NCBI RefSeq assembly: GCF_000014265.1 | Contig: NC_008312.1 | Location: 6,990,001-7,022,000, forward strand | DNA: 32,000 nucleotides | Direction of reading: 5' to 3' | DNA from: Trichodesmium erythraeum IMS101 | Lineage (GTDB): Bacteria; Cyanobacteriota; Cyanobacteriia; Cyanobacteriales; Microcoleaceae | Part shown: positions 3,195 through 13,756 of the stretch, piece after piece | Position numbering within the stretch: the stretch's first letter is position 1 | How the letters are laid out: every line of letters starts with the position of its first letter | The notes under the pieces: model-generated | Database searches by the model: none | The model's input: the letters and a program-made list of their open reading frames with translations, nothing else | What the model was told of the DNA's origin: nothing | Translations under genes and position numbers: made by a program

Positions 3195-3625
3195 TGTTCT
3201 CTATCCAGGTTGTGTTAAACTAAGCCAGGTAAGTTACCCTGCCCGACTCGTCTTCAGAACCGGACGTGAGACTTTCACCTCATCCGGCTCCCCTCCTGAG
3301 CGTCCCTTGTCATGGGTACATCCTGCACTAGGGTTAACATATCGTTGATCCATTGGTAATTATCAGGTAGGTCCTGTGCCTTAAATTTTGGATATGCTTT
3401 AACGTCCAGTGCCGTTTTGCTGTCGTGACAATGTCGATGTAATAACTAATTATCCTAACAACTTTAGCATTGTCTTTTACCGTACCAATACTTTGATGGA
3501 TACTTTGATGACCCACTCCAACTAAGCCTTTTTGGTCGTAGGTATTTCCGTTTGGTTCCATAAGTTTTAAATTAATTGATATACTCCCATCAAATCCAAA
3601 TTTATGATGGGTAATTCTGATCATA
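3195..3625 (-). mobile_element. Group II intron, 3' fragment: maturase (X-domain) remnant plus domains V/VI. The 5' part is missing and the outer limits are approximate.
   Basis: A canonical domain V lies at 3257-3290. ORF 3334-3624 carries RT-domain-7/maturase-like strings (KFGFDG.., ..VVRIISYYIDIV..AKRHW). No RT domains 1-6 and no 5' GUGYG end are present. Confidence 0.7.
3257..3290 (-). ncRNA. Group II intron domain V (catalytic hairpin)
   Basis: The minus strand reads GAGCCGGATGAGGTGAAAGTCTCACGTCCGGTTC. This is 34 nt with the AGC triad, a 2-nt bulge position, a GAAA tetraloop and the closing CGGTTC. Confidence 0.85.
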
Positions 3626-8233: not shown

Positions 8234-8722
8234 TTATTCTTTTACCTCTATATTATTTATTGTAAAATTTGTTCTAGCTAGAGAACCATAATATTTTCTT
8301 GCTGCTTCATCGTAAGCAATAGCTGCATCTTTTTCTACCTCAAAACGACCTAAACGTATTTGCTTTTTGTAAACTTTAATTTCTGCTATCCATTTACGTT
8401 TATCCTTACACCAATACACTCCTCGGTATTTAGATGAATGTTTAACGCTAGGTCTTCTGTGCATTCGCGCACTTCCTTTAACTAAGCGTAAATTTTCTCG
8501 CTGATTATCTAGTTTATTGTGATTAATATGATAAACAGATACACCCATAGGAGCATCCATAATCACTCTGTGCATATATATAGTAGTTCTCTTTTCCTCT
8601 TTTTTTATTGTTCTAGCAGCAAACCCATCTATTAAGTACCATTTATGCTTTGATAATTCTTCATAGTCTTGTTCATCCACTATTACTATCTGCCCTCTAG
8701 TAATCAAAATTTCTTTAGACAT
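8234..8722 (-). CDS. HNH endonuclease plus AP2/ERF DNA-binding domain protein
   Basis: HNH_3-like YHINHNKLDNQRENLRLV is followed by the AP2 signature SSKYRGVYWCKDKRKWIAEIKVYKKQIRLGRFEVEKDAAIAYDEAARKYYG. It lies 42 bp upstream of the AKR gene on the same strand. Confidence 0.8.
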   Translation of the reverse strand: MSKEILITRGQIVIVDEQDYEELSKHKWYLIDGFAARTIKKEEKRTTIYMHRVIMDAPMGVSVYHINHNKLDNQRENLRLVKGSARMHRRPSVKHSSKYRGVYWCKDKRKWIAEIKVYKKQIRLGRFEVEKDAAIAYDEAARKYYGSLARTNFTINNIEVKE

Positions 8723-10588: not shown

Positions 10589-11437
10589 TTAAGCCACAGC
10601 TAACTCCTCAAGTTCACAAATATATCGCCCTACTGCAGTAGCAATAGGGCGTAAACTTTGAACTAACTTCACCATATCTTCCAACGACAATGCTTGCTGG
10701 GCATCCGAAACCGACTTCTCCGGTATAGGATGACACTCTATCATCAAACCATCCGCTCCGCAGGCAACCGCAGCTTTTGCCAAGGATGCCACCAACTCCC
10801 TTCTACCAGCAGCATGAGAAGGATCGACAATAACTGGCAAATGAGTCAACTGTTTCAATGCAGCTACCGCACCCAAATCTAAAACATTACGAGTATAACT
10901 ATCAAAACTACGAATACCTCTTTCACATAAGACCACATTAGGGTTGCCATAACTGAGAATATATTCAGCTGCCATTAAAAATTCCTCAATAGTTGCAGCT
11001 AGCCCCCGTTTCAAAATCACAGATTTGCCAGCTTTCCCAACTGCTTTGAGTAACTCAAAGTTTTGCATATTGCGACTACCTATTTGCAGCATATCTGCAT
11101 AAGCAACTACTGACTCTATTTGCGGAATAGACATAACTTCTGTTACTACTGGGATATTGTAGCGTTGGCGAACGGATGCCAAAATTTTTAATCCTTCTAT
11201 TCCCAACCCCTGAAATGAGTAGGGAGAAGTGCGGGGTTTGTAGACACCTCCCCGGAACATTTGCACAGGTGCCATTATTAACTTATTTGCTACTGCTGTC
11301 ATTTGTTCCATACTTTCAACAGTGCACGGACCTCCAATAATTAAAAAATTTGTACCTCCTACCGTTGTCTGTTCAGAAATATTGACAACTGTTTGATCTT
11401 CCGAGTGAGACTTGGATACAAGTTTAGTTTTAGACAT
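10589..11437 (-). CDS. aroF: 3-deoxy-7-phosphoheptulonate (DAHP) synthase, type I-beta
   Basis: 282-aa ORF with GGPCTVES, LQIGSRNMQNFELLK and IVDPSHA motifs. An AAGGAG RBS lies 8 nt upstream of ATG 11437. Confidence 0.9.
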   Translation of the reverse strand: MSKTKLVSKSHSEDQTVVNISEQTTVGGTNFLIIGGPCTVESMEQMTAVANKLIMAPVQMFRGGVYKPRTSPYSFQGLGIEGLKILASVRQRYNIPVVTEVMSIPQIESVVAYADMLQIGSRNMQNFELLKAVGKAGKSVILKRGLAATIEEFLMAAEYILSYGNPNVVLCERGIRSFDSYTRNVLDLGAVAALKQLTHLPVIVDPSHAAGRRELVASLAKAAVACGADGLMIECHPIPEKSVSDAQQALSLEDMVKLVQSLRPIATAVGRYICELEELAVA

Positions 11438-11468
11438 GAGATTTTCTCCTTGATAAATTAAGTAGGGT

Positions 11469-11506
11469 AAAAAATAAAAAACCCGGAACCATTATCAGTT
11501 CCGGGT
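11469..11506 (-). terminator. Rho-independent terminator of the proximal attenuator
   Basis: The minus strand reads ACCCGGAAC, tgataatg, GTTCCGGGT, then TTTTTATTTTTT. The stem is a perfect 9 bp. The structure ends 31 nt before the aroF ATG. Confidence 0.8.
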
Positions 11507-11531
11507 GAAAAGTAAAAGTCAGCATAACAAG

Positions 11532-11594
11532 TTACCCGGAACTATATCGGGGCCAAAAATAAAAACTGTAATACCATTTGTTAACTTGAGTCAT
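11532..11594 (-). CDS. Leader peptide 2: MTQVNKWYYSFYFWPRYSSG* (8 of 20 residues are W/Y/F)
   Basis: Translated by hand codon by codon from ATG 11594-11592 to TAA 11534-11532. The last codons and stop (AGTTCCGGGTaa) are the 5' arm of the antiterminator. Confidence 0.6.
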   Translation of the reverse strand: MTQVNKWYYSFYFWPRYSSG

Positions 11595-11631
11595 GGCTGT
11601 TCGTGTCTTTTTTTGATACGTCGAGTTTGTG

Positions 11632-11662
11632 AACAAAAAACCGCAGTGTTTATGCTGCGGTT
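11632..11662 (-). terminator. Rho-independent terminator of the distal attenuator
   Basis: The minus strand reads AACCGCAG, cataaaca, CTGCGGTT, then TTTTG. Read with a 6-bp CCGCAG/CTGCGG stem, it is followed by T6. Confidence 0.7.
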
Positions 11663-11707
11663 CACTCAGAGATTTATAGAAAAAAACTATATTCACTCCA
11701 AGTGAAC

Positions 11708-11749
11708 CTATTTATACCAAAAATAAAGGTAGAAATTATGGATAAACAT
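11708..11749 (-). CDS. Leader peptide 1: MFIHNFYLYFWYK* (7 of 13 residues are W/Y/F)
   Basis: Translated by hand from ATG 11749-11747 to TAG 11710-11708. The stop codon overlaps GGTTCACT, the 5' arm of an antiterminator. Confidence 0.55.
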   Translation of the reverse strand: MFIHNFYLYFWYK

Positions 11750-12259
11750 CGGCTTTTTATTAGTGTAAAGAAATGTACTAGTTATGGAATCTTTTATGCT
11801 TAGAGCAAGAATACTTCTTTTTATTTATTAATAAACAATCATAGCAGACACTTTAGATAGTGTCAAGCCCCTATAGGATTTTTTTTTCGGGGCTAGATGT
11901 AAAGCCACCTTTAGACATAGGGGTGAAAAAGAATGCAAAGCTTCTCTAAAAGGTTTACTCGGAAAAGCTTATGTAATTTCTGTATTAGTGGTAAACAAAG
12001 AAAGAATTTTTGCACCTTAAATGAATGGATGACAGGGATATATAGTAATCCTATTTTGGTTATAATATTGTGTAGTAATTAGGATTCATAATTAAAAATA
12101 TTTTCAGTTCAAGTCAACTATTTTAATATGATTATAGCCAATTTATGGATTGCTATAACATTATTAATATCATTAAACATGAACTAACTACCAAAAAATT
12201 GAGGTGATTTTGCTGTTAATTATAATTATGAATTATCCTAATTTACAATTTATTCCTGT

Positions 12260-13756
12260 TCAAAATCTGCCTCTTTTATTTATTTTACCTAGTGTCATTT
12301 GTAACGCTCTATTATATTTTTTTTCATTCTCCTTAACTGACTGCCATAAATCAATAATTGGTTCTGGATAATCTACCCCTATTTTGACACCAAATCTATC
12401 TTGTTCAACAGGTAATAATTTCCAAGGTTCATGTACTTTAGCAGGAGGAACTTTTCCTAATTCTGGTAACCAATGTTTAACATATTTTCCTTCTGGGTCG
12501 TAATCTTTTGCTTGTTTAGGAATATTAAAATAGCGAAAACCTCGCCCATCATTTCCTACTCCAGCAGTGTAATTCCAATTTCCCCAATTACTACAAACAT
12601 CATAATCTATTAGTAAAGACTCAAACCATTCAGCTCCCATTTGCCAATTAATTCCTAAATTTTTAGTAAGAAAACTAGCAACATTTTGTCGACCACGATT
12701 TGACATAAAACCTGTAGCTAAAAGTTCACGCATATTAGCATCTACTAGAGGAAATCCTGTTTGACCTGCTTGCCACTTTCTAAATTTTTCCCAATCCTCT
12801 TGCCAAGGAATAGCTATACCTTGTAAACCAGATTTATGAAATATTTTATTCCCATGTTTTTGACAAATAAATCGGAAGTAATCTCGCCATATTAACTCAA
12901 ATATTAACCAATAAGTTGATTGATTCTTGACTCTTTGATATTCATATTCTTTAACTTCTTCATAAATATAACGAGGTGACAAACATCCTAAAGCTAACCA
13001 AGGGGAAAATTTAGAAGAATAATTGGCACCTAGCATTCCATTTCTGGTTTCCTTATAAACTTTTAAATAGTCTTGCTGCCAAAAGTAGTTTTTTACTCTT
13101 TCCTTAGCGGCAGTTTCTCCACCTTTAAATTCTAAAACTCCCTGTGAATTTAGTGGCGGTTTTTCTAGATTTAAATCAGATAATGTAGGTAATTCTCCCA
13201 CATCAATTTTTGGTAAGGATGATAATTTTTTAGGGATTGAGAATGTAGGGTTTACACTAGAATTTTTCTCTACATCTTTACGAAAAGTAGTAAATAATTC
13301 TGGTAATTGTTTTATTTCAAAAGGTAAATCATCTGGATGGTAAAGTGTATGACCCCAAAATGATTTTAACCTAACTCCAATTTGTTTTAGTGCTTGATGA
13401 ACTAATCTTTCTACTTTAACTTCGAGCTCAGTAACTTCTTGATGAAAAAATACTGATTTAGCAGATAATTGTTGAGCTAGTCTAGGAATTACTATTTCTG
13501 GTTTATCTTGAAAAATAACTAAATTACTACCTAATTTTTGTAGGTTGTTACGCAAATCAGCAATACTTTCTAGTAAAAACTTTGCTCTAAATACACCTGT
13601 TTTAGGAAAACCAAAATCTGTTTGACTAAATTGCCTTGGATCTAAACAATAAATCGGTATAATTTGAGCATTAACTTTGAGTGCTTTATATAGTGGTTCA
13701 TGGTCATGGATGCGTAGGTCATTACGATACCATAATATAATTACGTTTTGACTCAT
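12260..13756 (-). CDS. DASH-family cryptochrome / photolyase-family flavoprotein
   Basis: 498-aa ORF. The N-terminus ILWYRNDLRIHDHEPLYKAL..YCLDPRQF..FGFPKTG matches the cry-DASH pattern, and the C-terminal FAD-binding part contains WRDYF, SNRGRQNVASFL and DYDVCSNWGNWNY. Confidence 0.9.
   Translation of the reverse strand: MSQNVIILWYRNDLRIHDHEPLYKALKVNAQIIPIYCLDPRQFSQTDFGFPKTGVFRAKFLLESIADLRNNLQKLGSNLVIFQDKPEIVIPRLAQQLSAKSVFFHQEVTELEVKVERLVHQALKQIGVRLKSFWGHTLYHPDDLPFEIKQLPELFTTFRKDVEKNSSVNPTFSIPKKLSSLPKIDVGELPTLSDLNLEKPPLNSQGVLEFKGGETAAKERVKNYFWQQDYLKVYKETRNGMLGANYSSKFSPWLALGCLSPRYIYEEVKEYEYQRVKNQSTYWLIFELIWRDYFRFICQKHGNKIFHKSGLQGIAIPWQEDWEKFRKWQAGQTGFPLVDANMRELLATGFMSNRGRQNVASFLTKNLGINWQMGAEWFESLLIDYDVCSNWGNWNYTAGVGNDGRGFRYFNIPKQAKDYDPEGKYVKHWLPELGKVPPAKVHEPWKLLPVEQDRFGVKIGVDYPEPIIDLWQSVKENEKKYNRALQMTLGKINKRGRF

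Follow-up and report, generated by a model that had tools for sequence, protein, structure and literature searches.

Two probable leader-peptide attenuators in series ahead of the DAHP synthase gene of Trichodesmium erythraeum IMS101

The window analyzed here is a 32-kb stretch of DNA from Trichodesmium erythraeum IMS101, with a GC content of 33%. Its minus strand harbors a monocistronic gene for 3-deoxy-D-arabino-heptulosonate 7-phosphate (DAHP) synthase, preceded by a leader with two consecutive units. Each unit comprises a short open reading frame (ORF) packed with Phe, Tyr and Trp codons, a set of alternative RNA arms and an intrinsic terminator. Comparison with related loci makes it probable that these are two leader-peptide (ribosome-mediated) attenuators in series on one leader RNA, controlling a DAHP synthase that has no allosteric domain. 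A preliminary description of the same DNA had outlined two ORF-terminator units ahead of a gene named aroF, with a DASH cryptochrome (cry-DASH) gene upstream. All the features it described are present on the minus strand, and profile matches agree with both gene names. The features of the locus are as follows.

12260-13756, minus strand: cry-DASH, upstream of and co-directional with the DAHP synthase gene
11866-11838, minus strand: sigma-70-type promoter of the leader/DAHP synthase transcript, −35 TTGACA at 11866-11861, spacer of 17 nt
11749-11708, minus strand: leader ORF1, encoding MFIHNFYLYFWYK, stop codon TAG at 11710-11708
11708-11696, minus strand: 5′ arm of the unit 1 antiterminator (arm A), GGUUCACUUGGAG, 13 nt
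11692-11674, minus strand: inner hairpin of unit 1
11671-11659, minus strand: 3′ arm of the unit 1 antiterminator, CUCUGAGUGAACC, with GAACC shared with terminator 1
11663-11635, minus strand: intrinsic terminator of unit 1, GAACCGCAG, an 8-nt loop, CUGCGGUUU and U6 (stem 11663-11638, U6 11640-11635)
11594-11532, minus strand: leader ORF2, encoding MTQVNKWYYSFYFWPRYSSG, stop codon TAA at 11534-11532
11542-11534, minus strand: 5′ arm of the unit 2 antiterminator (A), GUUCCGGGU, in the last three codons of ORF2 and into the stop codon
11506-11498, minus strand: shared middle arm of unit 2 (B), ACCCGGAAC, the complement of GUUCCGGGU
11489-11481, minus strand: 3′ arm of the unit 2 terminator (C), GUUCCGGGU again
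11480-11469, minus strand: U tract of the unit 2 terminator, U6AU6, UUUUUUAUUUUUU
10589-11437, minus strand: regulated gene, DAHP synthase of type I-beta, 282 residues

The 282-residue DAHP synthase is identical to ABG53517.1 of T. erythraeum IMS101. It aligns with positions 68-335 of the 338 positions of NCBIfam profile PRK08673 and also matches TIGR01361, and a Pfam scan returned DAHP_synth_1 and NeuB only. Because the PRK08673 alignment starts only at profile position 68, we consider that the protein lacks the N-terminal regulatory domain. The Shine-Dalgarno sequence AAGGAG at 11451-11446 (minus strand) precedes its ATG start codon at 11437. The promoter has an extended −10 element (TG-TATGAT, hexamer at 11843-11838) and is the best promoter-like site of the region, with 11 of 12 positions matched in addition to the TG; the predicted transcription start lies at about 11831. 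The preliminary description had placed the whole element within 11437-11800. Both units are indeed inside these limits, but the element begins further out, at the promoter. The interval 11750-12259, described as free of ORFs, contains none of at least 50 residues, although chance ORFs of 20-49 residues are present.

The aromatic codons of ORF1 run from 11734 to 11714 (F Y L Y F W Y), and 7 of the 13 residues of the peptide are aromatic. The minimum-free-energy fold of unit 1 gives the 13-bp antiterminator. The spacer from the T-tract of terminator 1 to the ATG of ORF2 is 40 nt long (11634-11595), slightly more than the 38 nt first reported. In ORF2, the aromatic run extends from 11576 to 11553 (W Y Y S F Y F W), with 8 aromatic residues out of 20. 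The stem of the unit 2 terminator has 11 pairs (11506-11481) and the whole terminator spans 11506-11469. The 10-mer TTATTTTTGG occurs exactly twice on both strands of the 32-kb window, at 11726-11717 in ORF1 and at 11562-11553 in ORF2, and each copy is followed 5-9 nt further on by ATAG; this is the shared Tyr-Phe-Trp string that had already been pointed out.

Each unit displays the features by which a leader-peptide attenuator is recognized. A short start-to-stop ORF lies in the 5′ leader of a biosynthetic gene, and its codons are enriched for the end products of the pathway, namely Phe, Tyr and Trp for DAHP synthase. An intrinsic terminator, present twice and conserved both times, stands between ORF and gene. 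An exclusive antiterminator shares an arm with it and shows covariation, which is weak in unit 2. Finally, arm A adjoins or contains the stop codon, so that a ribosome of the usual footprint would mask it at the stop codon and would leave it free when stalled at the regulatory codons. Two leader ORFs, each with its own alternative structures, also correspond to what is understood by tandem attenuators.

We scanned genomes, taking one per species, and obtained 80 loci with relatives of the DAHP synthase. About 60 genomes and 65 distinct metagenomic leaders have unit 1 and unit 2, in the same order, ahead of an orthologous DAHP synthase gene. The carriers of the tandem belong to Oscillatoriales, Leptolyngbya-like lineages and Obscuribacterales (Melainabacteria). 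They include Okeania, Lyngbya, about 20 species of Microcoleus, Kamptonema, Aerosakkonema, Leptolyngbya, Stenomitos, Drouetiella and Leptothoe, together with many metagenome-assembled genomes (MAGs) of Obscuribacterales/Melainabacteria. The taxonomic labels of some MAGs are doubtful, since the leader of the ‘Sericytochromatia’ locus L020 is almost identical to that of Stenomitos. The preliminary description had left to a survey of genomes whether one or two units precede the gene; two are present in many lineages, and both are conserved.

Searching metagenomes with the unit 1 pattern gave 121 matches, 67 of which combine an aromatic leader (…YFYFWF..VH.. and a stop codon) with a DAHP synthase 179-570 nt downstream. 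Another 36 matches had enough downstream sequence but no DAHP synthase, and all 36 are devoid of an aromatic ORF; they are therefore chance matches to the pattern. Among the 65 distinct metagenomic leaders, unit 2 is canonical in 57 and present as a recognizable variant in the other 8. We also used a family-agnostic detector, which requires an ORF with at least 5 aromatic residues out of 8 and, after it, a terminator-like hairpin. A first, strict version undercounted, with two units in 32 loci. Among 68 DAHP synthase loci, the relaxed version, for which the controls were equally clean, detected two upstream units in 45 and one in 13. In 728 control segments of the same loci it found a single unit twice and two units never. 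With family-specific patterns, nearly all loci carry two units. Statistics within the 32-kb window are only moderate (10 aromatic-rich 8-codon windows, of which several lie in repeated DNA, compared with an expectation of about 1.5), because aromatic-rich runs are not rare in such AT-rich DNA. The comparative evidence rules out chance.

The RNA structures were assessed on alignments of 42 non-redundant unit 1 sequences (A1) and 37 unit 2 sequences (A2), drawn from the window and loci L001-L067. In A1, 89% of the cells of the 13-bp antiterminator are paired, compensatory changes are found at 8 of the 13 pairs, and none of 500 shuffles was as good. In the 9-bp terminator of unit 1, 98% of the cells are paired and 4 pairs have compensatory changes; unguided RNAalifold recovered parts of both helices. 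In A2, 88% of the cells of the A:B antiterminator retain their pairing; covariation is weak, and RNAalifold predicted the A:B core. The B:C terminator is paired in 90% of cells and has 22 double-change cells, a number that none of 500 shuffles reached.

The two units differ in their energy balance. In the window, the antiterminator and the terminator of unit 1 have predicted energies of −21.4 and −12.8 kcal/mol, respectively, and those of unit 2 of −13.7 and −17.1 kcal/mol. Throughout the unit 1 family the antiterminator is the more stable of the two structures (42 of 42 sequences; means of −23.9 and −16.3 kcal/mol), and unit 1 should thus be locked open whenever arm A is free. The unit 2 family is balanced, with means of −18.5 kcal/mol for the antiterminator and −18.0 kcal/mol for the terminator, and the antiterminator is more stable in 19 of 37 sequences. 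Since the two structures of unit 2 are nearly isoenergetic, the outcome would be decided kinetically.

The leader ORFs have the conservation expected of translated sensors. Their start codon and reading frame are kept across the family. A UGA directly after arm A of unit 1, at 11695-11693 in the window, forms an invariant column (42 of 42 sequences). Outside Trichodesmium it ends the leader ORF in all genera and in all 41 of the remaining non-redundant sequences. The peptide consensus is M..(S)YFYFW(F/Y)..V(H/R)xx-stop for unit 1 and ..(N/S)W(Y/F)(Y/F)GFYFW(P/T)..S(S/P)G-stop for unit 2. The family has a run of six aromatic positions, (Y/F)-F-Y-F-W-(F/Y), at which Phe and Tyr interchange, and the T at the first position of the aromatic codons is nearly invariant. 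The C-terminal residues (VHLE, VRPE or VHRG) track the covarying arm exactly, and their constraint therefore lies at the RNA level. Phe is encoded by UUU in 87% of cases in unit 1 and 79% in unit 2, compared with 35% in the adjoining DAHP synthase genes, which have a GC content of 42-68%. This bias, seen even in GC-rich genomes, may reflect a slower decoding of the wobble codon by tRNA-Phe(GAA) or a pause of the polymerase at U-rich sequence. The last Trp codon is separated from arm A by 11 nt in unit 1 and 13 nt in unit 2, a distance that approximates the reach of the leading edge of the ribosome as given by its footprint.

The ORF1 of Trichodesmium departs from this pattern. It terminates at an in-frame UAG four codons before the family UGA, at the first base of arm A. 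The early TAG (11710-11708) occupies the position of a GAG in the family; it is common to the window and four other Trichodesmium contigs (L081-L084), and Okeania has the GAG. Termination at unit 1 may be weakened or retuned as a result.

From these comparisons we infer that the leader ORFs are translated, that the terminators act in vivo and respond to aromatic supply, and that their effects multiply. Transcription would begin at the promoter at 11866-11838, and a ribosome would translate the short aromatic ORF of each unit. With ample charged aromatic tRNAs, the ribosome would reach the stop codon and mask arm A; the shared middle arm would then pair downstream, forming the terminator, and polymerase would halt at the U tract. 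A ribosome stalled on an aromatic codon would have its front edge just short of arm A, leaving that arm free to pair with the middle arm, so that the terminator would be pre-empted and polymerase would continue. Stalling can happen at any of the Phe, Tyr or Trp codons, so a shortage of just one of the three amino acids should open each unit. This fits an enzyme that has no allosteric domain and that catalyzes the first, shared step of the pathway. Since the transcript must pass both units, read-through would be the product of two probabilities, and two such checkpoints should give a lower basal level and a sharper response.

Several observations weigh against two serial attenuators of this kind. 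No recognizable Shine-Dalgarno sequence was seen before ORF1 or ORF2, unlike the DAHP synthase gene with its AAGGAG; initiation without a Shine-Dalgarno sequence is common in cyanobacteria. We saw no upstream ‘1:2’ pause hairpin of the Escherichia coli type, which would synchronize ribosome and polymerase. The early stop of the Trichodesmium ORF1 leaves arm A only partly inside a terminating ribosome, although a ribosome terminating at this TAG would still cover most of the arm. Covariation of the unit 2 antiterminator is weak, because its CCGGG core hardly varies, and the U tract is missing from some unit 2 hairpins of Obscuribacterales. Finally, the terminator stems (GAACCGCAG/CUGCGGUU in unit 1, three copies of CCGGG in unit 2) are conserved in sequence beyond the needs of pairing in cyanobacteria and Melainabacteria alike. 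The extra-conserved stretches are columns 103-111 and 124-132 of A1 and the CCGGG cores of A2, and could be due to cassette transfer or to an additional constraint.

Some of these points would also suit other explanations. If only one unit worked, the other being a decaying relic or a structural or insulating hairpin, the shortened ORF1 of Trichodesmium and the unit 2 hairpins of Obscuribacterales that have no U tract would be accounted for, and natural single-unit leaders do exist in the genus Obscuribacter (L062 and L065). We consider this quite unlikely, as both units keep their ORF, aromatic codons, arm geometry, stem and U tract over a very deep divergence, a relic would not persist for so long, and the locus L060 has rebuilt a tandem from two unit 1-type copies. 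A different possibility is that the distal hairpin at 11663-11638 is simply the terminator of cry-DASH, which is transcribed from the same strand and directly after which we looked for a canonical terminator and found none. The preliminary description had itself named such an origin of the hairpin as fatal to its proposal. The promoter ahead of unit 1 is strong, lies between cry-DASH and unit 1, and is kept in other Trichodesmium and in Okeania; more widely, 58 of 62 related loci have TTGAC-N17-20-TAnnnT ahead of unit 1. Unit 1 is always present, even though the ORFs nearest to it on the upstream side form 40 unrelated clusters and point in either direction. The conserved promoter and the unrelated neighbors therefore indicate that the hairpin is not the cry-DASH terminator. 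It also lies about 600 nt past the cry-DASH stop codon and is coupled to a covarying antiterminator, which leaves this explanation extremely unlikely. Two serial attenuators dedicated to the DAHP synthase gene, as first proposed, agree with the deep conservation of both units in order, the covariation of unit 1, the retained pairing of unit 2, the promoter upstream of unit 1 and the lack of conserved upstream neighbors.

The remaining alternatives concern the sensor. The short ORFs might not sense anything, the hairpins being switched in trans by an RNA-binding protein, by an uncharged tRNA as in T-boxes, or by a small ligand. The unusually high sequence conservation of the arms (GGUUCAC...GUGAACCGCAG in unit 1, CCGGG three times in unit 2), the loose likeness of GGUGAACCGCAG to the T-box core GGUGGUACCGCG, and leader ORFs devoid of Shine-Dalgarno sequences would suit such a switch. 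It is nevertheless quite improbable: Rfam gave no T-box or other match with E values as high as 10 allowed, the ORF occupies the sequence ahead of the arms and leaves no space for a Stem I or an aptamer, and the start, frame, stop position and identity of the aromatic codons are kept as other codons vary, with C-terminal residues that follow the covarying arm exactly. T-box identity, considered because of GGUGAACCGCAG, was rejected on the basis of the conserved ORF upstream of the arms and the lack of any RF00230 match at E values up to 10. Alternatively, the leader peptides could be nascent-chain arrest peptides or functional micropeptides that sense free amino acids in the manner of TnaC and not tRNA charging. 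The FYFW motif is very strongly kept and is followed by Pro in Oscillatoriales, which speaks for such a peptide. However, this Pro is not kept outside Oscillatoriales (FWT and FFA variants), Phe and Tyr interchange freely as regulatory codons should, and stalling at high amino acid would induce the pathway, the wrong sign for feedback. We hold an arrest peptide to be very unlikely and retain two ribosome-mediated attenuators in series as the best description of the leader.

As a more speculative extension, the tandem may be an ancient, selectively kept two-stage device with deliberately non-equivalent stages, a locked stage 1 and a near-isoenergetic, kinetic stage 2, that would act as a temporal proofreading filter for sustained aromatic starvation. 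We put this forward tentatively and regard it as less likely than not. The antiterminator of stage 1 exceeds the terminator by about 7.5 kcal/mol in stability, in 42 of 42 sequences, and passage through such a device would require the stalling of two independently loaded ribosomes. If it is true and inheritance was vertical, the tandem predates the split of photosynthetic cyanobacteria and Melainabacteria. If true, it would also be direct evidence of ribosomes closely trailing RNA polymerase in a lineage that lacks Rho, and the first well-supported classical attenuation system in Cyanobacteriota.

The origin of the tandem may be sought in a duplication. The units have in common the 12-mer coding for FYFW and the spacing between Trp and arm A; in both, the arm starts with GUUC, includes C(C/U)GG and is immediately followed by a stop codon. 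When profiles and sequences of unit 1 and unit 2 were compared with nhmmer, similarity was weak and confined to the aromatic codons, with one exception: the single unit of the Obscuribacter locus L062 gave a match to the unit 2 profile with an E value of 2e-5 and resembles an intermediate form. The Obscuribacter loci L062 and L065 have unit 1 only. The Melainabacteria MAG locus L060 has two copies of the unit 1 type in place of unit 1 and unit 2, which indicates that such duplications do occur. The duplication followed by divergence that the preliminary description proposed is consistent with the shared string and is plausible but unproven, given the limited profile similarity. Such a duplication, if real, would be ancient and not recent.

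We searched the literature on attenuation and leader peptides, including searches directed at cyanobacteria, and found no description of this leader. What appears to be new is a pair of homotypic tandem leader-peptide attenuators in a lineage with no established mechanism of this type; attenuation, aroF leaders and tandem attenuators are each known. Tandem TPP (thiamine pyrophosphate) riboswitches of Bacillus anthracis and the thrZ T-boxes of Bacillus subtilis consist of independent terminator switches in series, all responding to one signal, an arrangement credited with a more digital response. Their sensor is an aptamer or tRNA binding, whereas in Trichodesmium it would be the translating ribosome. 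Rfam searches of the window and seven related loci, at gathering and permissive thresholds, found no leader family (Trp_leader, Phe_leader, or the Leu, His and Thr leaders), only spurious matches far below the gathering scores (E values of 0.027-9.2). According to Korolev et al. 2016 (PMC4833913), there are no reliable data on attenuation in cyanobacteria. The available text of the Trichodesmium primary-transcriptome paper contains no mention of the locus.

The Trichodesmium units resemble the E. coli trpL-trpE, pheL-pheA and pheM-pheST systems in their ORF of end-product codons, exclusive hairpins, intrinsic terminator and read-out of ribosome position (PMC11802643). The E. coli attenuators have four segments with a 1:2 pause/protector hairpin, whereas the Trichodesmium units have three arms and no such hairpin, mix three amino acids in each leader and occur as two complete units in series. 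In Corynebacterium glutamicum, an aroR leader peptide with Phe-Tyr-Phe precedes aroF, and transcription increases when the ribosome stalls (Neshat et al. 2014, as summarized in PMC11802643). By that summary, the two systems have in common a DAHP synthase operon under an aromatic leader peptide; the C. glutamicum leader, compared here by its description, is a single unit from another phylum, with no Trp codon reported there. The uORFC-13-1 motif before aroF in Acholeplasma has a predicted upstream ORF and terminator (PMC8632094). It differs in being a single unit of Tenericutes, known by prediction only, whose U run codes for Phe alone.

A precedent for two leader ORFs exists in the mgtCBR leader of Salmonella, in which mgtM and mgtP each determine which of the alternative stem-loops form and whether transcription continues into the coding region (PMC3641672). 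These ORFs sense ATP and proline and act additively, and the authors refer to a ‘singular example’ (PMC3641672). The preliminary description knew of no tandem arrangement among leader-peptide attenuators; this system is one, and its two ORFs respond to different signals. In Trichodesmium, by comparison, the regulatory codons of the two units are of one kind, and a canonical intrinsic terminator closes each unit. The likeness is functional only and implies no homology.

The tandem is probably the main control point of an allosterically unregulated DAHP synthase in the ecologically important Trichodesmium and Microcoleus. It offers a testable case for the coupling of transcription and translation in cyanobacteria and Melainabacteria, and a natural set of serial leader-peptide switches for the same signal, with single-unit (Obscuribacter) and re-duplicated (L060) variants for comparison. 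The units could also serve as compact aromatic-responsive parts for cyanobacterial synthetic biology.

Further features were observed at the related loci. In 15 loci within L033-L059, mostly Melainabacteria/Obscuribacterales MAGs (L033 being labelled Drouetiella), a related ORF begins at most about 50 nt after the DAHP synthase gene. These ORFs form one cluster and mostly encode about 400 residues. The one that was scanned, from L046, contains chorismate mutase type II and prephenate dehydrogenase, as in an aroF-tyrA-like operon, and strengthens the link to the aromatic pathway. The DAHP synthase gene stands alone in Trichodesmium and other photosynthetic cyanobacteria. The GAACCGCAG...CUGCGGUU terminator also follows a Trp-rich leader ORF before the DAHP synthase gene of a Blastocatellia MAG (L073), and a single aromatic leader of a different kind is present in an Actinomycetota MAG (L072). 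In Stenomitos, a cobalamin riboswitch (RF00174, 44.5 bits; L026, 1913-2116, minus strand) is located some 0.9 kb upstream of the DAHP synthase locus and has no relation to the attenuators.

Close to the Trichodesmium gene, an inverted repeat AGCCCC-N17-GGGGCU with an A9 run in its loop (11867-11895, minus strand) borders directly on the −35 hexamer of the leader promoter. On neither strand does it qualify as a canonical terminator. A strong terminator-like hairpin of 11 pairs, 7 of them GC, is located at 10626-10651 (minus strand), within the last 20 or so codons of the DAHP synthase ORF. It precedes the stop at 10589, and relatives align only to about residue 273-282. The C-terminal tail of the protein and the true 3′ end of the gene are therefore worth scrutiny.

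Elsewhere in the window, the aromatic-rich strings FWVFFSFW, FFFSWFLF and YWTFFSYY are repeated identically on opposite strands, at about 20939 (minus), 26496 (plus), 27151 (plus), 27277 (plus), 30239 (minus) and 30365 (minus). This indicates repeated or inverted-repeat DNA at 20.9-30.4 kb, perhaps a mobile element. A match to group II intron domain 5/6 was found at 3214-3293 on the minus strand (RF00029, 60.5 bits; RF04357, 60.3 bits). Finally, a 162-residue ORF at 8234-8722 (minus strand) has, as judged by eye only, the look of an HNH endonuclease with an AP2-type DNA-binding region (HINHNKLDN…, YRGVYW…RLGRF…).

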